NCBI GenBank assembly: GCA_964597155.1 | Contig: CAZQXA010000001.1 | Location: forward strand, 1 to 33,128 | From: an uncultured Dehalococcoidales bacterium | GTDB lineage: Bacteria; Chloroflexota; Dehalococcoidia; Dehalococcoidales; BS750m-G39 | Reading direction: 5' to 3' | DNA length: 33,128 nt | Part shown: positions 128 to 22,279 of the stretch, in pieces | How positions within the stretch are numbered: position 1 is the stretch's first letter | Layout: every line of letters begins with the position of its first letter | Notes under the pieces: generated by a model | Told to the model about the DNA's origin: nothing | Databases searched by the model: none | What the model saw: the letters and a program-made list of their open reading frames with translations, nothing else | Translations under genes and position numbers: made by a program

Positions 128-1249
128 ATGAAGATGAAAAGGAAATTCAATAAGGTGCTAAGAGGGGAGAGAGGGCAAGCGTTGGTTGCGGTCTTGATTC
201 TGCTCCTTTTGGGCGGCCTAATCACCGTTCCTCTTATGGGCTTTGCCAGCACCGGGGTGGAAACGGGTGCCGTCTATGAGGAGGACATGCACGAGCTTTA
301 CGCCGCCGATTCCGGCATAGAGGATGCCTTACAGCAGATAATAAATGGCGCCGAGGGCTTGCCCGGCGAGGGTGCCCCCATATGGTCATACCAAATAGCT
401 GATGTGAACGGCCAAGGGGTAGAGATTACCATAACCTATATAGATACCGCCGCTTATAAAATCACCTCCACCGCGGGCAACACTCAAATCGAAGTCTTCC
501 TTGCCGCGTTGTACGGTGATTATGCCGGTGTACTTGATAACGTCATCACCAGCCAAGGTGATTATACATTGCGAGGCCCGACTACTGTTTACCCGCCCGA
601 GGGGGAAGAGCATGGGCCGGAAGCCAACTACGATGGAGACTGGCCTACGCCTGAGGAACTGGCCATGTTTTACTTTGCTGATGTAGAGGGTTTAACCCCC
701 TACCCTAGCGGCAGTCTAGATGTGAAAAACTACGTGGCTACTGGACTTGGCCCTCTTTATAGAGATGGGACGCTATCAATAGTAAACAGCGGGTCTTCGG
801 GGTTAACCGTGTCACTTAACGGCACTTTATATATTACCGGCAATACAGTGATTGGCGCGACAGGACATGATTTCACTCTCAACCTCAACGGGCAGGCTAT
901 ATTTGTTGAGAGCGACGAGACCGGCGGATACGCCCTTGAAATCGGGGGTAAATGCACGCTCACCGGTTCGGGGTGCATTATTGCTGTTGGTAATATTCAA
1001 TTCAAACCAAACATGAGCTCCAGTCCGGCCGATTACGTTCTGGTCATGTCGATAACAGGCATGACTTATATGCAGCCTAATGGTGATTTTTACGGCACTT
1101 TAGCCGGCTCCACCGAAGTCTATATACAGAATGGCAGTGTCACTTGGTCACAACCAGGTGAAGGTGGAGTAAACTTTCCCGGCGGGGGTGGCAGCGGCAA
1201 CGAAGGTACTGAATACCTGATTCGCTCCTGGGAGATTGGCCCACCATAG
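128..1249 (+). CDS. GspK/PilX/TadG-like pilus-associated protein (minor-pilin-type N-terminal anchor, beta-strand-rich C-terminal domain), paralog 1
   Basis: RBS GAGGAGG lies upstream; the ATG at 134 aligns with the paralog start and is an alternative. The N-terminus is a basic stretch followed by ERG|QALVAVLILLLLGG, a hydrophobic helix without Glu5, as in GspK/PilX-type pseudopilins. The C-terminal half is Gly/Asn/Thr-rich. The gene heads the pilO/pilMN/pilT cluster. Confidence 0.6.
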   Translation: MKMKRKFNKVLRGERGQALVAVLILLLLGGLITVPLMGFASTGVETGAVYEEDMHELYAADSGIEDALQQIINGAEGLPGEGAPIWSYQIADVNGQGVEITITYIDTAAYKITSTAGNTQIEVFLAALYGDYAGVLDNVITSQGDYTLRGPTTVYPPEGEEHGPEANYDGDWPTPEELAMFYFADVEGLTPYPSGSLDVKNYVATGLGPLYRDGTLSIVNSGSSGLTVSLNGTLYITGNTVIGATGHDFTLNLNGQAIFVESDETGGYALEIGGKCTLTGSGCIIAVGNIQFKPNMSSSPADYVLVMSITGMTYMQPNGDFYGTLAGSTEVYIQNGSVTWSQPGEGGVNFPGGGGSGNEGTEYLIRSWEIGPP

Positions 1250-1278
1250 GAGCCGGCAGAAAGGAGGCTTGATAGAAG

Positions 1279-2448
1279 ATGAAAAGGATACTAAAGAAGG
1301 TAATAAGGGAACAGAAAGGGCAAGCACTGGTTGCGGTCCTGATTCTGCTCCTTCTGGGCGGTCTGGTCGCCGCTCCGGTCCTGGAGTTTGTGGGCACCGG
1401 TGTGGACACGAATGCCGTCTATGAGGAGGATATGAACGAGCTCTACGCCGCTGATGGCGGCATAGAGGATGCCATACGGCAGATAATAGCCGACGCCGAG
1501 GAGCTGCCCGGCGATGGTGAACCCGCCTGGTCATACCAGATAGCCGATATCAACGGCAAAGAGGTGGACATTATCATAACCTATGTAGATGACACCACCT
1601 ATAGAATCACCTCCACCGCCACCACCGATGAAGAATCCAGCACCACCATTGAGTCCTATCTAATCTCCAGTGACGGCATTTCCATTTTTGACAATGCCAT
1701 TACCTCCCTCAACGGGGACATAACCCTTAGTGGCAATTCAGAGGTTACCTCATCCCCGACCAGCGGGGAAGGCAATATCTTCGCCAACGGTGAAATCTAC
1801 CTAGGTGGTAACGCCAGAATAAGAGGCGACGGTACGGCCACTTTAGATATTCATCTAAGTGGTAACGCCCAGATTGAGGGGGATGAAACTGAAGGCGCGG
1901 CACCACTAACTCCGCCGGAGATAGATAGCGCAACATACCTGGAGGAGGCAGAGCTGGGCGGTATCCATTCAGGCAACCTGAGTATCAGTGGCAATGGTTA
2001 TTACGACCTGGGACCACTACATATTACCGGAAACCTGTCCATTTCGGGGAATTACATTGTAAGACTGGAAGGAACCGTCTATGTTGATGGCACCATCAGT
2101 ATGAGCGGCAACACCCGCATTGAGGGCGGCTATTCTATTCTTGCCGAGGGTAATATTTCTATAACCGGGAATAGTAAACTTGACCTTGACAATATCCCCT
2201 TCGTTTTTTCCACCGAGGGCGATATTTATATTAGCGGCAATAACTGGACATCAGCCGTGGTCTACGCCCCCAATGGTAACGTTAACCTGACGGGGAACAG
2301 CAAGATATACGGAGCTGTGTGCGGACTGGGTGTTACCGGCTCGGGCAACAATAAGATTGAGTACCCCTTGGGGCTTGGCGATATTGAAGCCCTGCCCAAT
2401 GTCGGCGGGGACGATTACCAGATTCGCACCTGGGAGATTAATCCATAG
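1279..2448 (+). CDS. GspK/PilX/TadG-like pilus-associated protein with beta-helix repeats, paralog 2
   Basis: The first ~115 aa closely match the preceding gene, including the identical QALVAVLILLLLGG. The C-terminal motif is also shared (YQIRTWEINP versus YLIRSWEIGPP). The middle carries about 11 copies of [LIM][STG]GN repeats typical of parallel beta-helices. Confidence 0.6.
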   Translation: MKRILKKVIREQKGQALVAVLILLLLGGLVAAPVLEFVGTGVDTNAVYEEDMNELYAADGGIEDAIRQIIADAEELPGDGEPAWSYQIADINGKEVDIIITYVDDTTYRITSTATTDEESSTTIESYLISSDGISIFDNAITSLNGDITLSGNSEVTSSPTSGEGNIFANGEIYLGGNARIRGDGTATLDIHLSGNAQIEGDETEGAAPLTPPEIDSATYLEEAELGGIHSGNLSISGNGYYDLGPLHITGNLSISGNYIVRLEGTVYVDGTISMSGNTRIEGGYSILAEGNISITGNSKLDLDNIPFVFSTEGDIYISGNNWTSAVVYAPNGNVNLTGNSKIYGAVCGLGVTGSGNNKIEYPLGLGDIEALPNVGGDDYQIRTWEINP

Positions 2449-2460
2449 CAGGAGCAGACG

Positions 2461-3084
2461 ATGAGATTAGGTAAGACAGCTTGGTTAATCCTGGGCGGCG
2501 GCATTTTCGTTATTGCCCTGGGCATTCTTATCTTGGGCTACGCCCGGACTTCCGGCGAGCATGCCAGTGTGGAGGAGGAGCTGTCCTCGGCACAAACCCT
2601 GCTGCCCCAGGTCGTTACCGAAAGGGAATACTGGGAAAGCCAACTGGCCCTGGTCGAAGACCAGCTAGACGAAGCTACGGAAGCGTACGACGCCAGCCGG
2701 TCAAGATTCCCTCAAGAAGTGGATAGCATTGCCTACGACGAGGAGCTATTTATCATTGCCCATGCCCATGACCTGGAAATAGCCAGCCTCACTGTCTCAG
2801 AGACTTCCCAAGAAGATGTGCTGGGCATTATCTTCGATACCACCGCTTTTGAGGTGCAGGTACAGGCAAAAGACGCCCCTCATGTAACCTGGACCCAGGG
2901 ATTTATTGACCAGACGATAAATAATATAACCGCTTTCCTTAACGCCGTGACCAGCGGCGATTACTTCACCAACGCTACCATAGACCTGGTAAGTATACTG
3001 GCTCCTGAACCTGGTGAGGAAGTAGAAGCGCCTACAGCTCTGGTCACGCTTATTATTTACAGTTACCAGGAGCAAGAGGAATAA
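2461..3084 (+). CDS. pilO: PilO-like type IV pilus alignment protein
   Basis: RBS AGGAG is present. The protein has a single N-terminal TM helix (AWLILGGGIFVIALGILILG), then a coiled-coil segment, then an alpha/beta C-terminal domain. It is ~200 aa and lies adjacent to pilMN. Confidence 0.5.
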   Translation: MRLGKTAWLILGGGIFVIALGILILGYARTSGEHASVEEELSSAQTLLPQVVTEREYWESQLALVEDQLDEATEAYDASRSRFPQEVDSIAYDEELFIIAHAHDLEIASLTVSETSQEDVLGIIFDTTAFEVQVQAKDAPHVTWTQGFIDQTINNITAFLNAVTSGDYFTNATIDLVSILAPEPGEEVEAPTALVTLIIYSYQEQEE

Positions 3085-3086
3085 TT

Positions 3087-4556
3087 ATGGCTAAAGAAGT
3101 TATTACCCTATTTATTAGAGACGACGCCATTAACCTGCTGGTAATGGATGGCAGGCGAGTGGGAAAGTGGGCCAGCTTGCCCTTGGAGCCGGGGCTGGTA
3201 AGCCAGGGGCTCGTCCTTGAGGAAGCCAAGGTAGCCACCAAGCTCAAGGAGCTATTCAAGATGGAAAAGATAGCCATGGGGAAGGTCATCGCCAGCTTAA
3301 GCGGCCACAACTCGGTATATCGTCTAATAACCCTTCCCGAGCTGCCCGAGGCGGTATTGCCTGAGGCGGTAAAGCGTGAGGCAAAAAGGGTGATACCAGT
3401 GCCTTTGGAGGAGGTTTACCTTTCTTACCAGACTCTTCCCCCCACCAAAGGAGAGACACGCCTTTTCCTAGCCGCCTTCCCGCGCAATGTGGCTGACGCC
3501 CTGCAACGAACGCTACAACAGGCAGGCCTTCAGCCCTATAGCATGGATTTAGCTCCCCTAGCCCTGTGCCGAACGGCGAATGAGCCCAGGTCCATAATCG
3601 TAAATAGCACGTCAGACAACACCGACATTGTAGTTATGACCGAGAGGATACCCCAGGTAATCCACCGGCTGTCACTACCCGGCGAGGCTGAATCGTCATC
3701 GGAAAAGTTATCAGCCATAGCCGAAGAGATTGATAGGACTATCACCTTCTACAATTCCAGCCACCAGGATGCGCCTTTAGATTCAACCGTGCCCATGCTG
3801 GTTTGTGGTGACCTGGCAAAGGCACCGGAGAGCTGGGAAACACTGGCTGGTAAGTCGGTAAGTCCGGTGTCAATACTGCCCTCGCCGGTGGAATCCCCTG
3901 ATGGCTTTAACCCCAACGGATTTATGGTAAACATAGGGCTGGCTCTTAAGGAGCTACTACCCGAAAGAGGGGAGGCTAACTTTTCCCTGGTGAATCTTAA
4001 CGCCATGCCCGAGGTCTACCGGGCCAAGCCTGTCCGCCTGCCAAACCTCTTTGTCCCCGTTTCCCTAGCCATCAGTAGCAGCATAATTGTCGGCCTGATA
4101 GCCCTCATTATCAACACGGCGGCTCATACCGGGGTATTGCGCTCCGAACTGGAAACCGCTGAAGGTCTTATCGCCCAGGAGAGCGCCGGAATAACGGCAA
4201 TGCAGGAACAGGTCGGGCTGATAGAACCGCAGATTGCGGAGATAGAAGCCACTACCGATATCTTTGATGCCACCTTCAACACCCTGCAAGATATTCGCAT
4301 AGAGGTTAACACCGATGTCAGCCAGATTGTAACCCTGCGACCGGAGAATATAAATTTGACCGGCGTTGGCCATGTCGTTAATAGCGCCACCGTAAGCGGC
4401 ATATCCCCCGATGAGCAGAGTATTTTCGCCTATGCCCGAAGTTTAAGAGCCAGCGGCCGGTTTGCTACGGTGACTATCACATCTATAGGAGCTGTAGAGG
4501 AGGAGGGGGAAGTCACCGGCTTTGAATTTGAGTTTCTCCTGGAGCCGAGGGAATAA
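3087..4556 (+). CDS. pilM: PilM-PilN fusion protein (actin-like ATPase-fold PilM domain, TM helix, PilN-like periplasmic domain)
   Basis: The N-terminal ~310 aa have PilM-like architecture. A TM helix (LFVPVSLAISSSIIVGLIALII) follows, then a coiled coil and a PilN-like C-terminus (INLTGVGHVV...GFEFEFLL). The gene starts 3 nt after the pilO-like stop. Confidence 0.7.
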   Translation: MAKEVITLFIRDDAINLLVMDGRRVGKWASLPLEPGLVSQGLVLEEAKVATKLKELFKMEKIAMGKVIASLSGHNSVYRLITLPELPEAVLPEAVKREAKRVIPVPLEEVYLSYQTLPPTKGETRLFLAAFPRNVADALQRTLQQAGLQPYSMDLAPLALCRTANEPRSIIVNSTSDNTDIVVMTERIPQVIHRLSLPGEAESSSEKLSAIAEEIDRTITFYNSSHQDAPLDSTVPMLVCGDLAKAPESWETLAGKSVSPVSILPSPVESPDGFNPNGFMVNIGLALKELLPERGEANFSLVNLNAMPEVYRAKPVRLPNLFVPVSLAISSSIIVGLIALIINTAAHTGVLRSELETAEGLIAQESAGITAMQEQVGLIEPQIAEIEATTDIFDATFNTLQDIRIEVNTDVSQIVTLRPENINLTGVGHVVNSATVSGISPDEQSIFAYARSLRASGRFATVTITSIGAVEEEGEVTGFEFEFLLEPRE

Positions 4557-4561
4557 GAGAA

Positions 4562-5632
4562 GTGGATATTTTCGCCTTACTTTATACGGCTAAGTCAAAG
4601 GCGGCCTCTGACGTGCACCTGGTTGCCTTCAACCCGCCACTGCTGCGCATTGACGGCTCGCTAACGCCGATAGATAGCGCCACACAGCTCACTGAGGACG
4701 ATATAAACCAGGCTTTCGACCAGATAACCACCGCCGAGCAAAGGGAAGATTTCAACAAAAATCTGGAGCTTGATTTTAGCTACGTCCTGCCTGAGATTGG
4801 GCATGTGCGCTGCAATGCCGCCCAGCAACGCGGGGCTATCAGCCTTGCCCTGCGCCTTTTGCCGCCAGAAGTCCCCAGCATAGATGAGTTGGAGCTGCCG
4901 GCAATATGCAAGGAGCTGGCCTTAAAGCCAAGGGGGCTGGTAATAGTTACCGGGCCTACCGGCAGTGGTAAAAGCACCACCCTGGCGGCTATGATTAACC
5001 ACCTGAACACCAATGAAAGCCGCCATATAGTTACTATTGAAGACCCTATAGAATATGTCTACTCCAGTAAAAATTGCGCTATAACCCAGCGCCAGTTAGG
5101 CAGCGATACCAAGTCCTTTGCTGCCGCCCTGAAGCATGTCCTGAGGCAGGACCCGGACGTGATTCTGGTGGGAGAGATGAGGGACCTGGATACGGCGGCG
5201 GCAGCGCTTACCATAGCTGAGACCGGGCATTTGGTATTAACCACCGGCCATGCCCCCAGCGCCACTCAAGCGATGGAGAGAGTAATAGACCTGTTTCCCC
5301 CCGATGAGCGCCACCTGGCCCAGACGCGGTTAGCTTCTCTGCTGATTGGTGTGTTATGTCAGGTGCTCGTCCCCCGGGCTAACGGCTCGGGGAGGATAGC
5401 CGCCGTTGAGGTTATGCTGGCCAATGCACCGGTGAGGAACCTCATCCGCGAGGGCAAAATCTACCAGCTGCCAAATGTAATCCGCACCCACCGGGAAATA
5501 GGTATGATCTCACTGGATGAAGCCCTGGTTAACCTCTATCTTAAAGGGGCCATCAACGGCGAATCCCTGATCGCTTTCTGCAACGACCGCACGGAAGTGG
5601 AAAAACTCATCGGCAAGGTTGAGGTCAAATAG
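4562..5632 (+). CDS. pilT: Type IV pilus retraction ATPase PilT
   Basis: GTG start. Motifs present are Walker A GPTGSGKST, Asp box VTIEDPIEY, Walker B DPDVILVGEMRD and the PilT-specific AIRNLIRE-like motif (APVRNLIREGK). The size, 356 aa, fits PilT. Confidence 0.9.
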   Translation: MDIFALLYTAKSKAASDVHLVAFNPPLLRIDGSLTPIDSATQLTEDDINQAFDQITTAEQREDFNKNLELDFSYVLPEIGHVRCNAAQQRGAISLALRLLPPEVPSIDELELPAICKELALKPRGLVIVTGPTGSGKSTTLAAMINHLNTNESRHIVTIEDPIEYVYSSKNCAITQRQLGSDTKSFAAALKHVLRQDPDVILVGEMRDLDTAAAALTIAETGHLVLTTGHAPSATQAMERVIDLFPPDERHLAQTRLASLLIGVLCQVLVPRANGSGRIAAVEVMLANAPVRNLIREGKIYQLPNVIRTHREIGMISLDEALVNLYLKGAINGESLIAFCNDRTEVEKLIGKVEVK

Positions 5633-5715
5633 TCTCTTCCCCAAAAAGCCCCCCCAATCCCTACCCTCCAATAAACGGCCTTCTTCCCTCTATAGGCAAC
5701 AAATCCAAAAAACAG

Positions 5716-5764
5716 AAAAGCTCATTGGCAAGGTCTAAACATAACCTCACCAATAAGCTTTTCT
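5716..5764 (+). terminator. Candidate intrinsic terminator of pilT
   Basis: AAAAGCTCATTGG (5716-5728) pairs with CCAATAAGCTTTT (5750-5762) with one mismatch across a 21-nt loop. The stem runs into TTTTC. A C-rich, G-poor tract at 5633-5715 precedes it. Confidence 0.4.
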
Positions 5765-5852
5765 AATTCGCTTTTGCTATTCGCCAGGGCTTCGAAGCCC
5801 TCTAGCTTAAAAGATTACAAATGAGTACCCGGCTAGTTTAGATGGCTGGGCT

Positions 5853-6191
5853 TCATGGACAAGTTGCTTGAACTACGGTGCAGTCGGGATAAGTGCCGGC
5901 AAAGGTATAGGTGCCATCTATGTCGCCTACGCCGCCCTCAAAGTAGTTAGCCAGGTCGTCAATGGCATCGGGGCAGGCGTGAATCTCGGCAACATAGGCC
6001 ATGGTAGCTGTTTCCACCATCCGCTCTTCAATGTCACACGCTTCCGTTTGACCTGCGCCGAAGAACCGGCCAAAGTTAGGCACCACTATTGCCGCCAGGA
6101 TGCCGAGGATAGCTATCACCACCAGCAACTCAATTAGGGTGAAGCCCTTCTCGCCATAGCGAAAGCTCTTGAGTAACCTCCTTAGTCTCAT
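5853..6191 (-). CDS. Type IV pilin (prepilin with class III signal peptide)
   Basis: The N-terminus MRLRRLLKSFRYGEKG|FTLIELLVVIAILGILAAIVVPNF is the canonical G|FTLIE cleavage/methylation motif. RBS GGGAGGTG is strong. The gene has its own promoter. Confidence 0.9.
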   Translation of the reverse strand: MRLRRLLKSFRYGEKGFTLIELLVVIAILGILAAIVVPNFGRFFGAGQTEACDIEERMVETATMAYVAEIHACPDAIDDLANYFEGGVGDIDGTYTFAGTYPDCTVVQATCP

Positions 6192-6254
6192 TTGTCACCT
6201 CCCTTCTTTTGGTTATTTAGACTCAATTTAGCCTAACTATTGTTAGGTATGTTT

Positions 6255-6283
6255 ATGATATTATTTGCCCTTTTTAGGGTCAA
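6255..6283 (-). promoter_or_regulatory. Sigma70-type promoter of the pilin gene
   Basis: On the minus strand: TTGACC (6283-6278), 17-nt spacer, TATCAT (6260-6255). The predicted leader is ~55 nt. Confidence 0.6.
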
Positions 6284-6431
6284 TAGTTCATTAGTAACAG
6301 TTAGCAGTGGTAGTACATAGTAATATGGGGCTAGTAATAGGTGGTTCCTTTATGTCAGTAGTCCAATAGTAATGGTTAGGAGGCTTAATAAAGAGGCTGG
6401 TTAGCTTCTAAGAAGGGGCTAATGAGAGGAC

Positions 6432-7805
6432 TTATAGTCCCTTGGCTTCAAAGACCTTGATTCTCTGCCTCTGGGCAAACTGCTTGGCTTCCTTAGCCAG
6501 GCCGGGAACAGCGATGAAGACCTTGTCCATAATGCCTATATCATAGGCTTTATTATCAAAAGCGAACACCTTTTCCAGTCCCACCGGTCCCCCAGCCACC
6601 TCGGTGCCGATGGCGACATCATGAACGACAATGCCGTCATCCCTGGTAGCCAGTATATCTATTTTATGGGCCGCGCCCGACCTGCCGCTGACCTTAGCGT
6701 TCTCCTTCACCTCGTAGCCGCGCCGCTTCAGGTACTCTATAAGCTGTGATTTGGACTTAAAGGCAAAGGGCTCCTTGGGCGCTTCCACGGCGGGCTTGGC
6801 AGCACTGCTAGCCAGCACCGTCTCCAAACCCTTGACCTCGAGTAGCTTTATCCTCTGCTGGCTGGCAAACTTCTCGGCTTCCTTAGTTAACCCGGGGAGG
6901 ACAACCAAGACTTTATCGTGAATGCCAATATCATAGACCTTATCATCAAAGTCACATATCTCCCCCAGCTCTATCGCCTCCCTGGCGACCTTAATGCCGA
7001 TGGCAATATCATGAACAACAATGCCGTCATCCTTAATGGCCCGTATATCTATGGTGTGCTCCGCCCCCGACCTGCCTTTGACAACGGCATCTTCCTCCAC
7101 CTTATAGCCGAGTCGCTTCAGGGTTTCTATGAGCTGTGCCTTGGGCTTGACCTCAAACTCCAGCCAGCCCCTCTTGGCCTCGTTGAAACTATAGGAATAG
7201 ACAATTACCTCATCAATCTCATCCTGGGGAGTGAGGGCATCGCACTTCAGGCAGCGCCATTGTATCTCCGGCTGGCTGAATATCTCGTAGCAATCATAAC
7301 ACTTGCACATCAAGCCCAGGCTCTGGTAGTCGCCACCGCCAATGTGCAGTTCCAGGCCGCACCTGGGACAGAGATATCCCTCGCCAGAAACAAACTCGTC
7401 CTCCAGCCCGCCGAACTTACAGGAGAGGTGTTCAAAGACACGGCCCCGGGCAAAATTCCCCGAGCCGCATTGAGGACAACAACTATATGGTCTTATATTT
7501 ACCGAGTGGCACTGGGAACAGCGGAGCAGCCTATCAAAGAAATTCCTTACCAGTATCTCCCTAGAAACCAGGGATTCCAGAATTGATACTGCTTCCCTGC
7601 CCTTGACCTTTAAGGCTTGCTCCACCACCGGGTAGCTAAAGCCCAGCTCGCTGGTGAAATCAAGCTCTGGTTTAATATCAACAATCCTCCCCGCCAGCAG
7701 CTCAGCCGCCAGTTTCTTCGCCTTTTCCCTCACCTCCCCGCTGATGGTGGGGGTGGTTTTGGCTGGTTGGGGGTTACTAGCAGTAGGCTCGTTCACTTCT
7801 GCCAT
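6432..7805 (-). CDS. Uncharacterised protein: N-terminal wHTH-like region, cluster of CxxC Zn-ribbons, two tandem Mrr/restriction-endonuclease-fold-like modules
   Basis: CxxC pairs occur at aa 96/99, 110/113, 146/149, 169/172 and 185/188. Aa 216-327 and 346-457 are clear tandem repeats at an exact 130-aa offset. Each repeat has the pattern GY-V...GRSGAxHxIDI...VVHD-AIG...PGL-KEA-xFA-xQRIK, which resembles Mrr_cat. The gene has its own promoter. Confidence 0.8.
   Translation of the reverse strand: MAEVNEPTASNPQPAKTTPTISGEVREKAKKLAAELLAGRIVDIKPELDFTSELGFSYPVVEQALKVKGREAVSILESLVSREILVRNFFDRLLRCSQCHSVNIRPYSCCPQCGSGNFARGRVFEHLSCKFGGLEDEFVSGEGYLCPRCGLELHIGGGDYQSLGLMCKCYDCYEIFSQPEIQWRCLKCDALTPQDEIDEVIVYSYSFNEAKRGWLEFEVKPKAQLIETLKRLGYKVEEDAVVKGRSGAEHTIDIRAIKDDGIVVHDIAIGIKVAREAIELGEICDFDDKVYDIGIHDKVLVVLPGLTKEAEKFASQQRIKLLEVKGLETVLASSAAKPAVEAPKEPFAFKSKSQLIEYLKRRGYEVKENAKVSGRSGAAHKIDILATRDDGIVVHDVAIGTEVAGGPVGLEKVFAFDNKAYDIGIMDKVFIAVPGLAKEAKQFAQRQRIKVFEAKGL
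6435..7160 (-). repeat. Intragenic tandem duplication (two ~112-codon modules at 6825-7160 and 6435-6770)
   Basis: Direct alignment of the two protein segments shows a 130-aa register and more than half identical residues by eye. Confidence 0.85.
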
Positions 7806-7841
7806 CTTCTCACTCTATAATAAATTTAGCGGTTAAAGCCA

Positions 7842-7870
7842 AGTATAGATTGACAGATAGTAAAAGTCAA
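7842..7870 (-). promoter_or_regulatory. Sigma70-type promoter of the 457-aa gene
   Basis: On the minus strand: TTGACT (7870-7865), 17-nt spacer, TATACT (7847-7842). It lies ~35 nt upstream of the ATG at 7805. Confidence 0.6.
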
Positions 7871-7966
7871 TATTACTTTTTTACCGCCTTACTGCTCCCC
7901 TTTTAAAGACCAAGAGCCGCCAATGTGTTGACTTTATCTTTAGAAGCATAGAAAATAGAGGGAATA

Positions 7967-8755
7967 ATGGAAATCGCCCTTGTCGTTATTTACACCCTCT
8001 TCGGCATGATTGTGGCTAGCTTCCTCAATGTCTGCATTGACCGCCTGCCCGCAAGTGAGTCGCTTATTTCCCCCGCCTCTCACTGCGCCTCCTGCCAGCG
8101 CCGCCTGGCCATAAAAGACTTAATTCCCGTTTTCAGCTATCTGTGGCTACGCGGCCGCTGCCGCTATTGCCAAACCCCCATCCCCAAGCGAATACTCTGG
8201 GTGGAGATTGGCACCGGCGCCCTCTTCGCCTACCTCTGCTGGCATATGGTCTGGCAACATGGTTCAGGTATCGCATTAGCCATTGCCGCTTTTTATTCCT
8301 GTCTTTTTATTGTCCTCATGGTCATTGACCTGGAGAAGGGGCTTATCCTGAACAAGGTAGTCTACCCGGCTATAGGCTTAGCTCTGCTCCTCAGCATCTT
8401 CTTCAGCATCTTCCTGCCCGATATAGAAATTGTCCCCTTCATCGGGCGGGCGGCCATCGGTGGTGGCATTGGGCTGGTGTTTTTCTTCCTGGTAGTTATT
8501 ATTTCCCGAGGGGGGATGGGCTGGGGGGATGTTAAGCTGGCGGCACTTGTCGGCCTGGTTACCGGCTTCCCCCTGGCCCTCGTTGCCCTGCTTATCGGGG
8601 TAATTCTGGGCGGGGTGGTGGCTGTGCTTCTTCTCAGCCTTAAAATAAAGAGGCGCAAGGAGGCTATTCCCTTTGGCCCCTTCCTCTCCCTGGCAGCCAT
8701 AGCTACCCTGCTTTGGGGAAATGACATCCTCAGCTGGTATCAGGGGCTATTTTAG
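7967..8755 (+). CDS. pilD: Prepilin peptidase / N-methyltransferase (A24 family)
   Basis: The N-terminus is FLNVCIDRLP with CASC...CRYC Zn-binding pairs. Catalytic Asp motifs are present (VIDLEKG and GMGWGDVKLAA). The protein is polytopic membrane. Confidence 0.9.
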   Translation: MEIALVVIYTLFGMIVASFLNVCIDRLPASESLISPASHCASCQRRLAIKDLIPVFSYLWLRGRCRYCQTPIPKRILWVEIGTGALFAYLCWHMVWQHGSGIALAIAAFYSCLFIVLMVIDLEKGLILNKVVYPAIGLALLLSIFFSIFLPDIEIVPFIGRAAIGGGIGLVFFFLVVIISRGGMGWGDVKLAALVGLVTGFPLALVALLIGVILGGVVAVLLLSLKIKRRKEAIPFGPFLSLAAIATLLWGNDILSWYQGLF

Positions 8756-8790
8756 CCCTATCTGGTGACCACCCTCTTGACAACCTCCCC

Positions 8791-8819
8791 TTGACTGGAG
8801 TAGGATATAGCACTATAGT
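8791..8819 (+). promoter_or_regulatory. Sigma70-type promoter upstream of the wHTH gene
   Basis: TTGACT (8791-8796), 17-nt spacer, TATAGT (8814-8819). Confidence 0.6.
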
Positions 8820-8852
8820 ACTAGGTTAAAAGTAATAGATAGCAGGCAGATA

Positions 8853-9125
8853 ATGAGATTAGAACGCCGAAGGTCCAGCATTGAAGTAATAGCCGATATG
8901 TTAAGGCTGGGTGAAGCTGGCAAGACCGAGATAATGTACAGCGCCAATATGAGCTACAGCCAGCTGCAAAAATATCTCAGCTTCTTGCTGCAACTGGGGC
9001 TTATAACCAAAGTGATGGTGGGAAACCCGGTGGTTACTTATAGAGTAACCAGAAAGGGCCTGCGGCTGCTAAGAAATATAGAGAGCATCCTGGAAATGCT
9101 TGAGTTTGCCGAGGAGGAGATCTAA
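8853..9125 (+). CDS. Small winged-helix DNA-binding protein (archaeal-style HTH_45-like)
   Basis: The 90-aa sequence IEVIADMLRLGEAGKTEIMYSANMSYSQLQKYLSFLLQLGLI...YRVTRKGLRLL matches, from memory, the pattern of small wHTH proteins common in archaea. Confidence 0.6.
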   Translation: MRLERRRSSIEVIADMLRLGEAGKTEIMYSANMSYSQLQKYLSFLLQLGLITKVMVGNPVVTYRVTRKGLRLLRNIESILEMLEFAEEEI

Positions 9126-9261
9126 CCTCCAAGGGCTTGCCAAATCCGGGGTATATAAGGCAGAGAAAGAGAAGGCGCTACTAAACTTTAAAGCAATAGA
9201 AGGGTAGCGCTAAAAATTGTCCTGAAGGCTATCATAGAAACATCGACGCAAGGGAGAGATA

Positions 9262-9678
9262 ATGGCTGAAAAAAGAATGTTGATATTGCCGGCGGAGGTC
9301 ATCAAGAAAATTGATGATAACCGCGGAGACCTAAGCCAGGCTGAATTCATTAATTTCCTGGTTGAGAGCCAGCTAAAAGTAGAGGTCCAAGATAAACCGT
9401 ACACCAGCAAAGAAGAGATTATCTCCCTGGTTGATAGCCAGATAAAAGAAGAGGCCAAGAAACAACACTATGTAACCCGGCAAGAGATTCAAGCCTTTGA
9501 GCAGGATATAAAGAGCCTGCTTAAAACCTTTCTCGACTTCTTTGTCAGCTACGGGCTTGAGCTTGGTAAAAAATCGCCCAAAGCTGAATTTGAGGAGCTG
9601 AGCAGCAAGCTGGAAGAGCTGGAAAACCACCTTTCCCCTGAAGGCGAGAGCAAAGAAGCCAAGATTAAATGGAAATAG
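9262..9678 (+). CDS. Ribbon-helix-helix (CopG/Arc-like) N-terminal domain protein with a charged coiled-coil tail
   Basis: RBS GGGAGAG is present. The N-terminus MLILPAEVIKKIDDNRGDLSQAEFINFLVE fits a beta-strand/helix/helix RHH pattern. The remainder is rich in K, E and Q. Confidence 0.5.
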   Translation: MAEKRMLILPAEVIKKIDDNRGDLSQAEFINFLVESQLKVEVQDKPYTSKEEIISLVDSQIKEEAKKQHYVTRQEIQAFEQDIKSLLKTFLDFFVSYGLELGKKSPKAEFEELSSKLEELENHLSPEGESKEAKIKWK

Positions 9679-9718
9679 CCTATCGGGCTTAAAAAACCCG
9701 TATTCAAGCGCTTTTAAA

Positions 9719-9751
9719 GACCCCCTTCTCCCTGCAGAAGGGGTCTTTTTA
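9719..9751 (+). terminator. Rho-independent terminator
   Basis: GACCCC(C)TTCT / AGAAGGGGTC stem followed by TTTTT at 9747-9751, ~40 nt after the stop of the RHH gene. Confidence 0.8.
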
Positions 9752-9855
9752 TTAGCCCTCCAGGAATAGAACATTGTTCTAGAACACTATATCTTCCCTT
9801 TGCTAGCTCTATCTGCCATATTCAGAACAGGTAAAGGCTTTAGGGAAGTTATAGC

Positions 9856-10428
9856 ATGCTCTATATAGCTTTAGGCAGCCTCGGTCTCCTGGTAATACAT
9901 GTTTTTGATATCGTCTCCCTAAAAAGGGTCCCGGGGGCCAAACCAGCTACCTGGCTGGTAGGCAACGGCTTACTGGCTTACTCAGCTATTATGGCCTGCT
10001 TTACCCCGGATAAGCTCTCATTACCTATCTGGTCAACCTGGTTGGGCTGGGCATTGCTCCTGGTTTCCCTACCCCTGCTGATATATTCCCTGTTTATCAA
10101 CCTCCCTTTCCGCAAGACGTATGTTGCCACCGGCGTTGGGGATAAGCTGGTAACCACCGGTCTTTATGCCCTTGTCCGCCACCCCTGGCTGCACTGGTTT
10201 ATCCTGGTCATGCTCTCCCTGGTGCTGGTCTCTCGGTCTCTCCTGATGCTCATCGCCTCACCGATATGGATTTTGCTGGATATCCTGCTGGTAATCATTC
10301 AGGACAGGTTCTCCCTGGGCAGGATGTTTGCCGGATATGACAACTACCGGCGCCAGACGCCGATGCTCCTGCCCAATCGGCGGAGCATAAGAGCCTTCCT
10401 AAACTCACTCAAGCAGGCCGGGGCCTAG
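9856..10428 (+). CDS. Membrane methyltransferase of the ICMT/phospholipid-methyltransferase family
   Basis: The protein has about 5 TM helices and the family motif LVTTGLYALVRHPWL. Confidence 0.6.
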   Translation: MLYIALGSLGLLVIHVFDIVSLKRVPGAKPATWLVGNGLLAYSAIMACFTPDKLSLPIWSTWLGWALLLVSLPLLIYSLFINLPFRKTYVATGVGDKLVTTGLYALVRHPWLHWFILVMLSLVLVSRSLLMLIASPIWILLDILLVIIQDRFSLGRMFAGYDNYRRQTPMLLPNRRSIRAFLNSLKQAGA

Positions 10429-10457
10429 AAATCTTCAACTAAAGTAGAGGGAATAAG

Positions 10458-12110
10458 ATGACTAAAGAAGCTGAATTACTCACCAAAGGTAAAAACGAAG
10501 AACTCTGGCGAAAGTGCTGCGGCTTTATTGACCTGAGCCTGGATGATTGCATGAAGATTCAGCGGCGGTTACTACTGGAGCAGCTCGAACTGCTCAAAAA
10601 CTGCAAGCTGGGCCGGAGTATCATGCGCGGGGCTGAGCCCGAAACTGTGGAGGAATTCCGCAAGCTAGTGCCCATAACCACCTATGCTGATTATGAACCA
10701 TTCCTCCTGACCAAAAGTGAGCGCGCCCTGCCCCAGAAACCGCTGTTCTGGCAGCACACCTCGGGCCGGTCTGGTGAGTACCCCTTCAAGTGGGTCCCGG
10801 TTACCGCCCGGCAGTTTGAGGAACTGCGTGCCCTGCTCTTCGCCTGCCTTGCCTTCTCCTGCTGCCAGCAGAAGGGCGAAATTAACTACAAGAGAAAGGA
10901 CAAATTCCTCTATGCTCTAGCCCCCCCACCCTACACCACCGGTTCGCTCATCCACGCTGCCCCTCACGAAGTGTTTGACTTCCTGCCGCCAGTAAAGGTG
11001 GCCGAGGATATGCCCTTTGAGGAAAGGGTGCAGCTCGGTTTCAAGCTGGCTCTATCCGAGGGGCTGGACCTGTTCTTCGCCCTGTCCAGTGTACTGGTAG
11101 CTATTGGCGAGCGCTTCAGCCAGAGAGACGGGAAAATCGATCTCAGGCCGCTTTTGGGCAAGCCCAAGGCGCTATCCCGCCTGCTACAAGGGCTAATAAA
11201 GAGCAAACTGGCTCGCCGCCCCTTGCTGCCCAGGGACATCTGGAAGCTCAAAGGATTAGTCTCAACCGGCTCGGATGGCTCGGTATTCAGGGAAAAGGTC
11301 AAGGAGATGTGGGGGAGGTATCCCCTGGATGTCTATGGCGGCACCGAGGGCATAGTTATGGCGACACAGACCTGGGACTATCAGGATATGACCTTCATCC
11401 CTCACCTCAACTTCCTGGAGTTTATCCCCCAGCAGGAAAGCCTGAAATCCAGAGAAGACCCCTTCTACCAGCCAAGCACACTACTTCTAGACGAGGTCAA
11501 GCCGGGAGAAAACTACGAGCTGGCCATTACCAACTTCTACGGTGGCCCGCTCATCAGGTATAAGCTGGGCGATATGATTAAGATAACAGCAATGCGCAAC
11601 GAAAATTTAAATATAGACATCCCCCAGATGGTGTTTCACTCCCGGGTGGATGATATGATCGACATCGCCGGCTTCACCCGCTTGACCGAAAGGGTTATCT
11701 GGCAGGCTATAGAGAACACCGGGGTAGCCTATAAAGAGTGGACAGTGCGCAAGGAGGTCAGGGAAAAACCAATACTGCACCTTTACCTCGAGCCCAGGGA
11801 AAACGGCTATATCACCGAGGAGCAAATAGCCGAAGCGGTACACCACGAACTAAAAATATTGGATGCTCCCTATGCTGACCTGGAAGAATTTCTGGGCTTA
11901 AGACCATTAGAGGTTACCCTGCTTCCCGAAAACGCCTTCCAGGGCTACATGTTAAGACAGCAGGCGGCTGGCGCCGACCTGGCCCACCTCAAGCCGCCCC
12001 ACATCAACCCCTCTGACGGCATCATCGCCTGCCTGGTCAATGGCGACCAGACACCGCCAACCGCCGAGCCAGAAAAGCAGCCGGAAGGCATTTATAGCAA
12101 AACAAAATGA
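10458..12110 (+). CDS. GH3-family (acyl-acid amido synthetase-like) adenylate-forming enzyme
   Basis: Patterns typical of GH3 proteins are present: FRKLVPITTYADYEPF, WQHTSGRSGE..KWVPVT, YGGTEG and RYKLGDMIKI. The assignment is from memory of family motifs. Confidence 0.55.
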   Translation: MTKEAELLTKGKNEELWRKCCGFIDLSLDDCMKIQRRLLLEQLELLKNCKLGRSIMRGAEPETVEEFRKLVPITTYADYEPFLLTKSERALPQKPLFWQHTSGRSGEYPFKWVPVTARQFEELRALLFACLAFSCCQQKGEINYKRKDKFLYALAPPPYTTGSLIHAAPHEVFDFLPPVKVAEDMPFEERVQLGFKLALSEGLDLFFALSSVLVAIGERFSQRDGKIDLRPLLGKPKALSRLLQGLIKSKLARRPLLPRDIWKLKGLVSTGSDGSVFREKVKEMWGRYPLDVYGGTEGIVMATQTWDYQDMTFIPHLNFLEFIPQQESLKSREDPFYQPSTLLLDEVKPGENYELAITNFYGGPLIRYKLGDMIKITAMRNENLNIDIPQMVFHSRVDDMIDIAGFTRLTERVIWQAIENTGVAYKEWTVRKEVREKPILHLYLEPRENGYITEEQIAEAVHHELKILDAPYADLEEFLGLRPLEVTLLPENAFQGYMLRQQAAGADLAHLKPPHINPSDGIIACLVNGDQTPPTAEPEKQPEGIYSKTK

Positions 12111-13375
12111 AGACAGAAGATATAAATAATAACGGCCGGCGGGTAGTCGTTACCGGTCTCGGCGCAGTAAGCCCGGTGGGGTTAACTGTTCCCAGCATGT
12201 GGGAAGCCCTCATTGCCGGAAAATCGGGGGTTAGCTATATTTCCAGCTTTGACCCGTCATCCCTTGAGGTCAAATTTGCCGCCGAAGCCAGTGGTTTTGA
12301 CCCCATGGTTTATGTCAACCGAAAAGAAGCCCGCCGCATGGACAGGTTCACCCAGTTTGCCGTGGCCGCCAGCCTCCAGGCAACAGAATCAGCCGCCCTG
12401 AAGATAGATAGTAGCAACGCTGAGGAGACCGGCGTTATCATCGGTAATAGCGTCTGCGGACTGCTCTCGGTCTGCGAGCAATACAAGATACTGAGTGAAG
12501 AAGGCCCAAGGAGGGTAAGCCCGGTTCTGGCACCGACTATGACCGGCGATGCCCCCTCGGTACAGGTTTCTTTGATATTGGGTGCCAAGGGACTGAGCTA
12601 CTCACCGTCCTCAGCCTGCTCCAGCGGCAGTGACGCCATCGGGCAAGCCTATCAGGCGATTAAAGCCGGCGCGGCCAAGGTGATGATAGCCGGCGGCACT
12701 GAAGCGCCCATCATCCCCCTGGTGCTGGTCGCCTTTAACGCTATCCGTGCCCTGGCAGCCAGTAACAACGGAGCGCCAGCGGCCTGCCGTCCCTTCGACG
12801 CCGAGCGTGACGGCTTTATCATGGGCGAAGGCGCGGCCATCTTGGTCATTGAAGACGCCGACCACGCCGCGGAGCGTGGCGCTCCTATACTGGCTGAAAT
12901 CGCCAGCTATAGCGCCACCAGCGATGCCTTTCACCTGACCCAGCCGTCGCCTGACGGCGAGGGTGCCGCCAGAGCCTTAAGACTAGCCCTGAAAAGGGCT
13001 AACCTCAAGCCCAGCGATATTGACTATATTAATGCCCACGGCACAGCCACCCTGCTTAATGACCGAGCTGAAACCCGGGCTATTAAAAGCGTCTTTAGCG
13101 GAAACGGATATGATGCCCACCACATCCCCGTCTCCGCCACCAAATCTATGCTAGGGCACCTTTTAGGAGCCGCTGGGAGCATTGAGGCGGTGATATGCAT
13201 ACTAGCCATAAATCACGGCATTGTGCCCCCAACGATAAACCTCACTCACCCCGACCCCGAGTGTGACCTGGACTATGTGCCTAATGAGGCACGCTCTGTC
13301 AAGGTTAAGACCGCCATGTCAAACTCCTTCGGCTTCGGCGGACATAACTCGGTGCTCATCTTTCGCCACTACTAA
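12107..13375 (+). CDS. fabF: 3-oxoacyl-ACP synthase II (KAS II)
   Basis: RRVVVTGLGAVSPVG is present, with active-site Cys in SSACSSG, His in NAHGTAT and MLGHLLGAAG, and C-terminal SNSFGFGGHNSVLIF. The start overlaps the GH3 stop (ATGA at 12107-12110). Confidence 0.9.
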   Translation: MKTEDINNNGRRVVVTGLGAVSPVGLTVPSMWEALIAGKSGVSYISSFDPSSLEVKFAAEASGFDPMVYVNRKEARRMDRFTQFAVAASLQATESAALKIDSSNAEETGVIIGNSVCGLLSVCEQYKILSEEGPRRVSPVLAPTMTGDAPSVQVSLILGAKGLSYSPSSACSSGSDAIGQAYQAIKAGAAKVMIAGGTEAPIIPLVLVAFNAIRALAASNNGAPAACRPFDAERDGFIMGEGAAILVIEDADHAAERGAPILAEIASYSATSDAFHLTQPSPDGEGAARALRLALKRANLKPSDIDYINAHGTATLLNDRAETRAIKSVFSGNGYDAHHIPVSATKSMLGHLLGAAGSIEAVICILAINHGIVPPTINLTHPDPECDLDYVPNEARSVKVKTAMSNSFGFGGHNSVLIFRHY

Positions 13376-13397
13376 AGAATACCCCCCAATATTCCTA

Positions 13398-13426
13398 TTG
13401 ACAACCCCAAAGCTATAACGGATAAT
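13398..13426 (+). promoter_or_regulatory. Sigma70-type promoter of the GGDEF/HD-GYP gene
   Basis: TTGACA (13398-13403), 17-nt spacer, GATAAT (13421-13426). Confidence 0.55.
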
Positions 13427-13497
13427 TCCTTATTATATAATGATGGTTATTTTTATTAGCTACACTAGTACTAGTACCGGGAGAATAAGCTCATAAA

Positions 13498-16795: not shown

Positions 16796-18151
16796 CTATT
16801 TGTATACCTTGCCATACTCCATTGCGGCATCAACCATTGCCTTTACATTTTCCGCCTTGACTTCGTCAAAGAAGGCCCCATTGCTCACGATAAAACCGCC
16901 GCCCTTGGCGCAGGTATCTATCAGATTCTTAACGTAGTCCTTCACCTGCTGGGTCGTGCCCAGCTTCAACAGGTCGGAGGGCACGTTGCCGAACATGCAG
17001 GCAACCTTGCCCAGCGTTTTCTTGGCTTTAGCCATATCGCTCTGGTCGATCATCCATAGGGTCTTGCCCTTGGGTAGGTCGCAGACAACCTCCATACGCG
17101 TGTTCCAATGCCCCTCAGCCGCTGGCATTGGTACGACACCCTCAGCAATCAAACCCATCATGACCTTCCTAAAGGTAGGCCAGTAGAACTTCTTGAACTG
17201 CTCATCGGAGAGGAAGCCATCGGCACCTTTGTGCAGAGGCATGAATATTATGGGGTGTCCGGCCATCAAGGCGGTGCCTACCCCCATCTTAATCATGAGC
17301 GGCGTTAATCTCTCCATGGCTTCAAGGAGCTTATCCGGACAGCGGTACATATCCACCATTACCCCTCTGGTTCCTCTCAAGGTATCGCCAACTACATCAA
17401 AGGGCGCCTTGGTAAATCCGGCGGCTATTATGGGGAAGCCGGCGGCGGTTACCTCGGCACTGAAGGCACCCATGGCCATTCCCCATTTCAGGGCTTCGGC
17501 GCCGGCCTCAAAGAGGGCCTTATAGGTGGCTTGAACAGGGGGCAGACCAAAGGGTATGAAATTACCGGCAACGCCGTACATCTCAAGTATGCCAGTGAGA
17601 GCCGGAAGCATCCGGAAACCATCTAGCTTACCGAAGACGCGCGGCAGATAGGTATTGCTAAAGAAATTCGACGGGTCGTCAATCAAGGCATCGTATTCGC
17701 CAGCGGTCATGTATTCGCCTTCGTTGGCTTGGTAGGAGCGCTCCGGGGCAACCCCATGACCGGGCCAGGAATACAGCTTATAGTCAAGGATTTCAAAGAA
17801 CTTCCCCGGGCCGGGCACAGCCGCGCCAAGGTTCCCATCCGGGGCAAAGTCCAGGACGAATTTTTTAAATGCCGCGCAGCACTTGTCGTAGTCATACATG
17901 GCTTCTTTGGGGGTTATCCCGGCGTAATAAGCGGGGAAGAAGCTAGGAGCGAGAAAGACTGGCACCCTGTCCGGCAATTTCTTCATCTGGATAGCGTCTT
18001 TTATCCTGGTTATTCTTTCCTTATAAGCCTTCTCGGCATCAGGGCTTAGGTATTTAAGGTCCTTCCCTTGAGGGTCTTTCGGCGAAAGCCACTTCCCAAA
18101 TAGCGCCTCCTGCTTTTCCTCCGCTGTCATCTCTGCCCATTCCTTTGCCAT
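16796..18151 (-). CDS. URO-D-family corrinoid-dependent methyltransferase, paralog A
   Basis: The start is placed at the ATG at 18151 (MAKEW...), 8 nt after GGAGG; the track GTG at 18169 overlaps that RBS. The C-terminal pattern GNVPSDLLKLGTTQQVKDYVKNLIDTC..GGGFIVSNG is typical of URO-D/MtaA-type enzymes. It is adjacent to the corrinoid protein. Confidence 0.7.
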   Translation of the reverse strand: MAKEWAEMTAEEKQEALFGKWLSPKDPQGKDLKYLSPDAEKAYKERITRIKDAIQMKKLPDRVPVFLAPSFFPAYYAGITPKEAMYDYDKCCAAFKKFVLDFAPDGNLGAAVPGPGKFFEILDYKLYSWPGHGVAPERSYQANEGEYMTAGEYDALIDDPSNFFSNTYLPRVFGKLDGFRMLPALTGILEMYGVAGNFIPFGLPPVQATYKALFEAGAEALKWGMAMGAFSAEVTAAGFPIIAAGFTKAPFDVVGDTLRGTRGVMVDMYRCPDKLLEAMERLTPLMIKMGVGTALMAGHPIIFMPLHKGADGFLSDEQFKKFYWPTFRKVMMGLIAEGVVPMPAAEGHWNTRMEVVCDLPKGKTLWMIDQSDMAKAKKTLGKVACMFGNVPSDLLKLGTTQQVKDYVKNLIDTCAKGGGFIVSNGAFFDEVKAENVKAMVDAAMEYGKVYK

Positions 18152-18193
18152 TTTTATTACCTCCTGCACCTTATCTGCTTTTTATAAGGATTG

Positions 18194-18823: not shown

Positions 18824-18937
18824 TTTCTTTATACCTCCTTAAATCTTAGTCGGGCTCTGCCCTAATATATCGACCTCGTTTGGCACCTCCCTATAATTAC
18901 CTCCCCGCTTTAGAAAGTTTGCTCCTCTGCAGAAGGT

Positions 18938-18969
18938 TATGCCCTTGCTTGCTATAAGTCAAGGGCATA
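18938..18969 (-). terminator. Perfect 10-bp stem hairpin between livF and the corrinoid operon (possible terminator or processing site)
   Basis: TATGCCCTTG (18938-18947) pairs with CAAGGGCATA (18960-18969) across a 12-nt loop. There is no U-tract on either strand. Confidence 0.3.
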
Positions 18970-19004
18970 TAACAGTTATCTGGAGCAGCATATCAGTTTT
19001 AAAG

Positions 19005-19709: not shown

Positions 19710-19713
19710 AAGC

Positions 19714-21370: not shown

Positions 21371-21374
21371 TTCT

Positions 21375-22247: not shown

Positions 22248-22279
22248 AGTAACAACTTTCTGACCTGGCAATCAAGGGC

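Follow-up and report, generated by a model that had tools for sequence, protein, structure and literature searches.

What does a protein that joins a cysteine-rich domain to two nuclease-like modules do inside a type IV pilus (T4P) locus? The question is raised by contig CAZQXA010000001.1 of an uncultured Dehalococcoidales bacterium, which we analyzed over its entire 33,128 bp (hereafter the window) and which stops before pilB. The open reading frame (ORF) listing of the window holds, at 6432-7805 on the minus strand, an ORF with an ATG start that encodes a protein of 457 amino acids (aa). The Pfam families T2SSE, T2SSF, PilM_2, PilN, Peptidase_A24, and N_methyl all failed to match this protein, indicating that it is not a core T4P component, and it has no signal peptide or membrane segment. 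In the reading that we favor, to which we give about an even chance, it is a cytoplasmic, noncatalytic regulatory or adaptor part of the T4P machine, in which the module pair would work with the assembly ATPase PilB and the TackOD1 domain would handle a signal. The gene and its parts, with confidence values from an AlphaFold2 (AF2) model given as the predicted local distance difference test (pLDDT), are as follows.

6432-7805, minus strand: gene for the 457-aa protein with TackOD1 and two probably inactive restriction endonuclease (REase)-like modules (stop codon 6432-6434; Pfam TackOD1 and Mrr_cat; AF2 mean pLDDT 83.8)
7743-7805, minus strand: N-terminal tail, aa 1-21, predicted to be disordered and poorly conserved (pLDDT <50; no alignment consensus)
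7521-7742, minus strand: winged-helix-like N-terminal part of TackOD1, aa 22-95 (AF2 helices; weak local Foldseek matches)
7188-7520, minus strand: Cys-rich, beta-rich TackOD1 body, aa 96-206, with five CxxC pairs and one HxxC, 12 ligands (invariance in homologs; published TackOD1 signature)
6816-7160, minus strand: REase-like module 1, aa 216-330, motif D253 ... G270-I-K272 (best Mrr_cat stretch 226-328; AF2 topology; AF1548 alignment)
6771-6815, minus strand: low-confidence linker between the modules, aa 331-345 (pLDDT 58-61 at residues ~331-350)
6435-6770, minus strand: REase-like module 2, aa 346-457, motif D383 ... G400-T-E402 (60% identity to module 1, ungapped)

An earlier description of this stretch, made from its letters alone (the original prediction), had called the protein an orphan. 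This view did not survive, as residues 27-206 match Pfam TackOD1 (PF18551; arCOG06883) with an E value of 1.5e-33 and 116.4 bits against a cutoff of 32, from profile position 8 to 187 of 188 and thus over the whole domain. Searches matched it to 877 of the clusters formed at 90% identity and to 2196 of the representatives at 50%. The top 120 of the 90%-identity matches are full-length and 63-100% identical, and the few that carry organism labels all belong to Chloroflexota or Dehalococcoidia. The 457-aa protein is therefore a member of the TackOD1 family, which is uncharacterized, and not a new class of system. TackOD1 has been described in archaeal response regulators and archaeal T4P loci (PMC4858521, PMC5847659). 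Makarova et al. 2016 (PMC4858521) listed arCOG06883 among uncharacterized cytoplasmic proteins tied to T4P loci, and Galperin et al. 2018 placed the domain in TACK archaea "as well as in some bacteria." The original prediction also did not recognize either of its proposed roles as a known pilus accessory function, which holds only in part: TackOD1 was already reported in thaumarchaeal T4P loci, and its function was termed obscure there (PMC4858521, PMC5847659).

In the Cys-rich body, all five CxxC pairs read in the original prediction are present (C96/99, C110/113, C146/149, C169/172, and C185/188), together with an H126-xx-C129 pair that it had overlooked, and the whole pattern matches the TackOD1 signature of Galperin et al. 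2018, namely, eleven conserved Cys in five CxxC and one HxxC. All eleven Cys and H126 are unvaried in 75 homologs, and the resulting 12 ligands would be enough for three Zn sites. A TackOD1-only model built from 73 bacterial and archaeal sequences reached a pLDDT of 94.5, and Foldseek returned no PDB match for it at E≤1e-3. With a high-confidence model and no PDB counterpart, the Zn-binding body may represent a new fold.

The N-terminal part of TackOD1 had been taken for a winged helix, and the AF2 secondary structure is consistent with this assignment, showing helices at residues 23-37, 59-65, and 70-81 followed by a beta hairpin at 85-109. Foldseek comparison of the TackOD1 model with PDB gave sub-threshold local matches of ~64 residues (E values of 0.7-2) to MarR, GntR, Stf76, and TFIIE winged helices, with MepR, Stf76, and AraR as named examples. 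No Pfam helix-turn-helix family matched the 457-aa protein at E≤1. From the model, the winged-helix reading is plausible.

The remainder of the protein consists of the two modules, whose tandem arrangement held up well. Modules 1 and 2 align without gaps over 111 aa with 60% identity (E value of 3e-47), and equivalent residues lie exactly 130 aa apart, as had been noticed from the sequence (G244/G374, D253/D383, G270/G400, and P304/P434). Their suspected resemblance to Mrr is backed by a significant profile score, Pfam Mrr_cat (PF04471) matching two stretches of the 457-aa protein with an E value of 8.4e-13 and 48.9 bits against a cutoff of 21. An AF2 model of the full protein built on 75 homologs (mean pLDDT 83.8; predicted TM score 0.64) gave each module the alpha-beta-beta-beta-alpha-beta-alpha-beta topology of PD-(D/E)xK nucleases. 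The top Foldseek match in PDB was 1Y88/AF1548, an Mrr_cat protein (E value of 7.7e-7), followed by Cdn1, EndoMS, MspJI, AspBHI, Can2, R2 endonuclease domains, and the REase-like domain of RPB5. Sequence searches of PDB with a single module produced spurious matches to YopM and RecA only, and a 37-module profile was required to reach 1Y88, aligning to AF1548 with an E value of 2.4e-5.

In this profile alignment, the catalytic Asp of AF1548 falls on D253 and its E-C-K on G270-I-K272; the 130-residue offset then gives D383 ... G400-T-E402 in module 2, in agreement with the IGIK and IGTE elements named in the original prediction. Residues were counted over 75 close homologs. Gly occupies the second-acid position in all 75 sequences in both module 1 (position 270) and module 2 (position 400). 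The Lys position of module 1 (272) holds K in 54 sequences, E in 19, R in 1, and A in 1, and that of module 2 (402) holds E in 72 and G in 3. The catalytic D ... (D/E/Q)xK triad of active Mrr_cat enzymes is thus incomplete, with D253 and D383 kept and the second acid replaced by Gly. Given this invariant Gly and the interchange of K and E at the Lys position, both modules are probably noncatalytic, a proposal of the original prediction that now draws on fold, profile alignment, and residue counts. Among archaeal single-module relatives, the 270-equivalent is usually D or E, and no module of the alignment examined has Lys at the 272-equivalent. The modules of some relatives also give weak matches to Pfam NA-iREase1 (PF22722; inactive REases), a family that the 457-aa window protein does not reach at E≤1. 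Since the modules lack the catalytic motif despite their Mrr_cat fold, the name "restriction endonuclease" is unsuitable; this and the database names "ssDNA-binding Zn-finger topoisomerase 1" and "ribosomal protein S27E" are misleading for the family. An NCBIfam search of the 457-aa protein gave nothing relevant.

The surroundings of the gene point to the pilus. In the window, the neighbors expected from the original prediction, a pilin gene directly downstream and a divergent pilD, were both recognized by their families, next to further pilus genes.

5853-6191, minus strand: type IV pilin gene, directly downstream on the same strand (N_methyl motif, E value of 5e-10)
7967-8755, plus strand: prepilin peptidase PilD of bacterial type, divergent from the 6432-7805 gene (A24_N_bact, E value of 1.4e-32; Peptidase_A24, E value of 4.5e-13)
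3087-5632, plus strand: PilM-PilN fusion (3087-4556) and PilT-like retraction ATPase (4562-5632), convergent with the pilin gene (PilM_2, PilN, and T2SSE matches)

To place this arrangement in the family, genomes were scanned with one genome per species; at least 121 species genomes hold a relative, and the best 80 loci, nearly all labeled Dehalococcoidia or Chloroflexota, were analyzed by comparing the pilus proteins of the window with them by tblastn. At least one T4P gene was found in 69 of the 80 loci, and the loci without any are mostly truncated just past the TackOD1 gene. When at least 5 kb were available on both sides, T4P genes were present in 33 of 35 loci, so that the enrichment beside pilus genes by which the original prediction proposed to judge itself is observed. 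Three gene orders occur. In the order of the window, the pilin gene comes next (directly downstream of the TackOD1 gene in 30 of 80 loci) and pilD is divergent; the TackOD1 gene faces an operon of pilB, pilC, minor pilins, pilMN, and pilT. In a second order, seen in 21 loci, the TackOD1 gene heads the pilus operon and lies less than 400 bp upstream of pilB; in L069, which comes from a complete chromosome, the gap between them is 28 bp. In the third (L086 and L087), the TackOD1 gene is followed by a small ORF and then by a pilB that itself bears the module pair. Survival of the T4P linkage through three gene orders is good evidence for a shared function.

The linkage extends to archaea, where a class of ~320-aa proteins carries TackOD1 with one module and aligns to query residues 28-330. 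Where labels exist, they read Bathyarchaeia, and one protein bears the name "TackOD1 domain-containing metal-binding protein." Archaeal loci were reached by protein search, and three were examined. In L089 (Bathyarchaeia), the TackOD1 gene adjoins a T2SSE-T2SSF-T2SSF operon; L090 has the same upstream synteny as L089 and stops at the contig edge; L088 places the gene among glycosyltransferases and sugar-nucleotide enzymes, beside a GT2 polysaccharide synthase.

There is also a link to PilB itself. Two full-length PilB-type ATPases, P0166 (802 aa) and P0170 (789 aa), start with a homologous tandem module pair followed by MshEN and T2SSE, and the N-terminal pair of P0166 shares 43% identity with the window protein over 230 aa (E value of 1.4e-44). 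Even the first Asp is gone from the P0166 copy, which reads "HTFAMMA" there. Genes for such PilB proteins share their loci with a TackOD1 gene in seven cases, with the module pair at these positions.

L041, 20970-21329: PilB N-terminal module pair
L065, 13827-14573: PilB N-terminal module pair
L066, 5562-6314: PilB N-terminal module pair
L067, 11965-12720: PilB N-terminal module pair
L068, 7293-8036: PilB N-terminal module pair
L086, ~10016-10708: PilB N-terminal module pair
L087, 5860-6609: PilB N-terminal module pair

Precomputed Pfam lists also give Mrr_cat for PilB of L001, whose TackOD1 ortholog is 87% identical, and of L005. Used as a protein query, the N-terminal pair of PilB returned only 8 matches, mostly fragments, two of which led to L086 and L087. 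When pilB directly follows the TackOD1 gene, it encodes a PilB without the pair (519 aa; MshEN from residue 22), and the PilB encoded less than 400 bp downstream in the 21 loci of the second gene order is likewise free of modules. This alternation of the pair between a PilB-fused and an adjacent-gene arrangement is a classic sign of a functional, and often physical, partnership with PilB. A PilB with an N-terminal pair of REase-like modules was not found described in the searchable literature.

Some observations on individual related loci stand apart from this argument. In L086, pilB and pilC are split into several short ORFs (10001-13358), more likely through frameshift errors in sequencing than as true pseudogenes. 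Toxin-antitoxin genes lie inside two related pilus loci, namely, HicA/HicB and a ParE-like toxin (L005 13387-13832; L086 17333-17587). L026 (CAYUDW010000263.1), a 4.7-kb contig with a TackOD1 gene, is labeled Brocadiaceae, which is probably a binning error. L059 (DYGU01000002.1), from a metagenome-assembled genome labeled Dehalococcoides mccartyi, has the TackOD1 gene directly upstream of pilB.

A second line of evidence comes from relatives with a receiver (REC) domain. Many relatives are response regulators of the form REC-linker-TackOD1-Mrr-Mrr, P0122-P0132 among them. In L058 (6507-12981), a 620-aa REC-TackOD1-Mrr-Mrr protein is encoded between a histidine kinase with three GAF domains and a GT2 chitin/cellulose-synthase-like glycosyltransferase, and no pilus genes occur within 10 kb of it. 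These fusions and the kinase neighbor in L058 indicate that TackOD1 and the modules are used as the output end of two-component systems. The window protein itself has no Response_reg match and just ~21 disordered residues ahead of TackOD1, and is thus not itself a response regulator.

Taken together, the fusion of the pair to PilB, the position of the gene next to pilB, the REC-bearing relatives, and the acidic character of the winged helix (see below) favor a PilB-linked role in signal output or as an adaptor over DNA binding. The original prediction had suggested a regulator of pilin expression or a DNA-handling factor, and either may still apply. In the mechanism that we propose, the module pair would be a docking or oligomerization unit acting on, or with, the PilB assembly ATPase, in trans within the TackOD1 protein and in cis when fused to the PilB N-terminus. 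TackOD1, which the response-regulator relatives put under the command of a phosphorylatable receiver domain, would receive or transmit the signal, and the outcome would be control over the timing of pilus assembly. A physical contact of the protein with PilB and the direction in which it would regulate are what we infer from these arrangements.

Several points weigh against this proposal. Fusion and adjacency only suggest binding to PilB, and as the TackOD1 protein also occurs beside module-free PilB, contact between modules cannot explain everything. T4P genes are missing from two fully flanked loci, L036 and L058, and the position of L058 and L088 beside GT2 polysaccharide synthases suggests that the family may serve cell-surface machines more broadly. 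The residues that are unvarying in the 75 homologs also include H250, D253, D287, D292, and H296-D297-K298, which would be compatible with a rearranged active site. Module 2 is basic, with an isoelectric point of 9.5 (5.9 for the whole 457-aa protein), and could bind nucleic acid. Finally, a conserved motif in the pilin promoter leaves room for a transcriptional role. The elements that bear on this last point are listed here.

7842-7870, minus strand: promoter-like site of the TackOD1 gene, TTGACT-17-TATACT (10/12 consensus match; from a consensus scan only)
6255-6372, minus strand: pilin promoter region with a sigma70-like promoter, two TTACTAATGGACTAT copies, and TTACTA hexamers

The sigma70-like promoter of the pilin gene reads TTGACC-17-TATCAT (6283->6255). 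The 15-bp TTACTAATGGACTAT occurs twice on the same strand, 75 bp apart, at 6297->6283, where it abuts the -35 box, and at 6372->6358, with the TTACTA hexamers between the two copies; within the 33-kb window it is confined to the intergenic region between the TackOD1 and pilin genes. Most of the related loci inspected for these elements (L001-L041, L069, L072, L076, and L085) keep the -35-proximal copy ~100-105 nt ahead of the pilin ATG, and some have variants of TTACTAATGGACTAT upstream of pilD and of pilT-like genes. The motif is a candidate operator of a pilus regulon.

These elements invite the explanation that the protein is a transcription factor whose winged helix, perhaps with Zn-ribbons or the basic module 2, binds TTACTAATGGACTAT in the pilin and other T4P promoters and switches pilin on or off. 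Its position directly upstream of pilin in 30 loci would fit, as would the confinement of the two TTACTAATGGACTAT copies to the intervening region and their retention upstream of pilin in related loci; the output domains of response regulators are mostly DNA-binding, so the REC-fused relatives could be counted on this side too, along with the weak structural matches to MarR, GntR, and TFIIE winged helices. However, all of those matches are below significance, and the winged helix is net acidic across bacterial and archaeal members, with a mean charge of -2 to -3. Its third helix conserves an acidic motif, ILESL, but no basic residue; the net charge of this helix is 0 in the window protein and -1.5 on average across the family. 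The same locus also encodes a conserved, basic winged-helix protein of the HTH_45 family (8853-9125), which is no less likely to bind TTACTAATGGACTAT than the TackOD1 protein. Moreover, DNA binding does not explain the 21 loci in which the gene abuts pilB or the fusion of the module pair to PilB, and we regard a transcription factor as unlikely, though it is the likeliest of the alternatives.

Rather more doubtful is a general regulator of cell-surface biogenesis, which would sense a ligand, a nucleotide messenger, or redox state through the Zn domain or pockets in the REase-like modules and relay the signal to the machine of the neighboring genes, be it pili or exopolysaccharide synthases. 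The eleven invariant Cys would suit such a sensor, a 7TM-GAF-GGDEF-HD-GYP protein of cyclic di-GMP (c-di-GMP) signaling is encoded nearby in 20 loci, and the REC-fused L058 and archaeal L088 adjoin GT2 chitin/cellulose-synthase-like genes and sugar-nucleotide enzymes. Yet T4P loci make up 33 of the 35 fully flanked Dehalococcoidia loci, and no ligand-binding family was detected in the 457-aa protein. This explanation also overlaps the PilB-directed adaptor, differs from it mainly in the breadth of targets, and is silent on the output step. T4P can mediate DNA uptake, and an active or conditionally active nuclease could process DNA in this context or serve in restriction or defense, in line with the NCBI product name "restriction endonuclease." The REase fold, the Mrr_cat score above the Pfam cutoff, and the conservation of the first catalytic Asp (D253/D383) and of H250/H380 would agree with it. 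Against it stand the invariant Gly in place of the (D/E)xK acid in both modules, the K/E variation at the Lys position of module 1 and the E of module 2, the lack of that Lys throughout the archaeal alignment examined, and the missing first Asp in PilB-fused P0166; having no signal peptide or membrane segment, the protein would not meet incoming DNA outside the cell. PADLOC gave a single spurious match to Cas11b (16 bits, E value of 0.002) and thus no defense-family hit, and the annotated neighbor genes include no methyltransferase or other restriction-modification partner; a defense system was dropped as an explanation on these grounds. A nuclease of any kind is accordingly very improbable.

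Returning to the PilB-directed adaptor, its closest known counterparts are the archaeal TackOD1 proteins of Thaumarchaeota, Bathyarchaeia, and other TACK archaea. They share the domain with its five CxxC and one HxxC, a C-terminal REase-like module in the ~320-aa forms, and a location in or near T4P loci, and REC-fused versions exist in both lineages. Unlike them, the Dehalococcoidia form has two modules in tandem instead of one and Gly instead of an acid at the 270-equivalent, and the window locus is of bacterial type, with PilM/N, PilT, N_methyl pilins, and a bacterial A24 peptidase. With AF1548/1Y88, the best match by both Foldseek and PDB profile, the modules have in common the alpha-beta-beta-beta-alpha-beta core, a Gly-rich loop, and the first catalytic Asp, which stands in GxSGxxHxxD here and in Q-E-I-D there. 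The E-x-K of AF1548 contrasts with G-I-K and G-T-E in the window modules, in a family where the Lys is not conserved, and unlike Mrr_cat proteins in general, the modules are duplicated in tandem and joined to a Zn-binding rather than a DNA-recognition domain. A REase fold without catalytic motif, presumably kept for binding, is also found in NA-iREase1 (NACHT-associated inactive restriction endonuclease 1) and the N-terminal domain of RPB5, although their partner domains and genomic contexts are unrelated.

Regulators directed at PilB are known in other lineages and include PilZ/FimX in Xanthomonas and Pseudomonas, the c-di-GMP-binding MshEN, and Hfq/EbsA in cyanobacteria. The likeness is one of concept: each of these modulates the pilus assembly ATPase, as a small cytoplasmic protein or as an N-terminal extension, and the PilB proteins of related loci also bear MshEN. 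In contrast, PilZ, FimX, and Hfq have no sequence or fold relation to the window protein, for which fusion and adjacency suggest that it may bind PilB. Searchable literature on TackOD1 describes the Zn-binding domain alone, with no mention of the REase-like module or the PilB fusion, and searches on inactive REases, on PilB with endonuclease-like domains, and on Dehalococcoidia T4P found nothing relevant. As far as this literature shows, it has not been described that TackOD1 is constantly accompanied by the REase-like module, that this module is duplicated in tandem in Dehalococcoidia, that it is fused to PilB, or that Dehalococcoidia T4P loci carry the TackOD1 gene almost universally.

A bolder and more tentative extension, possible but clearly less secure than the adaptor role itself, is that TackOD1 with inactive REase modules is an ancient, so far unrecognized regulatory subunit of T4P assembly ATPases, common to TACK archaea and Dehalococcoidia, whose dead-nuclease pair is dedicated to docking or oligomerization with PilB. 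If so, TackOD1, with ligands enough for three Zn sites, would represent a new fold for signal output or sensing, and pilus assembly would come under two-component, possibly redox, control by a route unrelated to PilZ/FimX/c-di-GMP and to PilS-PilR. The distribution is uncommon in any case for a cytoplasmic pilus accessory protein, being shared by bacteria and TACK archaea, and the alternation of the module pair with the PilB N-terminus suggests that dead REase domains were recruited as regulators of the pilus motor. Almost no work exists on the T4P of Dehalococcoidia, a major dechlorinating and subsurface lineage, and their loci nearly always carry a TackOD1 gene; the protein therefore offers a testable lead on pilus control in an understudied lineage as well as a Zn-binding fold without a solved relative.

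The rest of the window adds detail on the pilus locus and its flanks. On the strand opposite the gene, an ORF at 6918-7586 (plus strand, 222 aa) was regarded as incidental to the coding strand, given the conservation of the minus-strand protein across hundreds of homologs. No Rfam match was found in 5500-9300, and an RNA element in the intergenic regions was rejected. The synteny of pilMN and pilT is kept in related loci L001, L004, and L005, and PilM and PilN are united in a single 489-aa protein (3087-4556; PilM_2 at residues 24-178 and PilN at 413-481), a fusion that is also kept in related loci. Upstream of pilMN, the window holds at 128-3084 three ORFs of 373 aa (no family), 389 aa (DUF7305), and 207 aa (no family); kept in the pilus operon of related loci, they are probably pilus-associated or minor-pilin-like components.

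On the other side, a block of nonpilus genes at 8853-16005 accompanies the pilus locus in ~20 related loci and consists of the following genes.

8853-9125: small HTH_45 winged-helix protein
9262-9678: 138-aa protein without family
9856-10428: PEMT/DUF1295-like membrane protein
10458-12110: GH3-family adenylating enzyme
12107-13375: ketoacyl synthase
13498-16005: 7TM-GAF-GGDEF-HD-GYP c-di-GMP protein

Past the pilus block, the window continues at 16796-22271 with a URO-D/MtaA-like methyltransferase, a corrinoid (B12-binding) protein, and an ABC transporter of the branched-chain amino acid type, which are genes of ordinary Dehalococcoidia metabolism with no relation to the TackOD1 protein.

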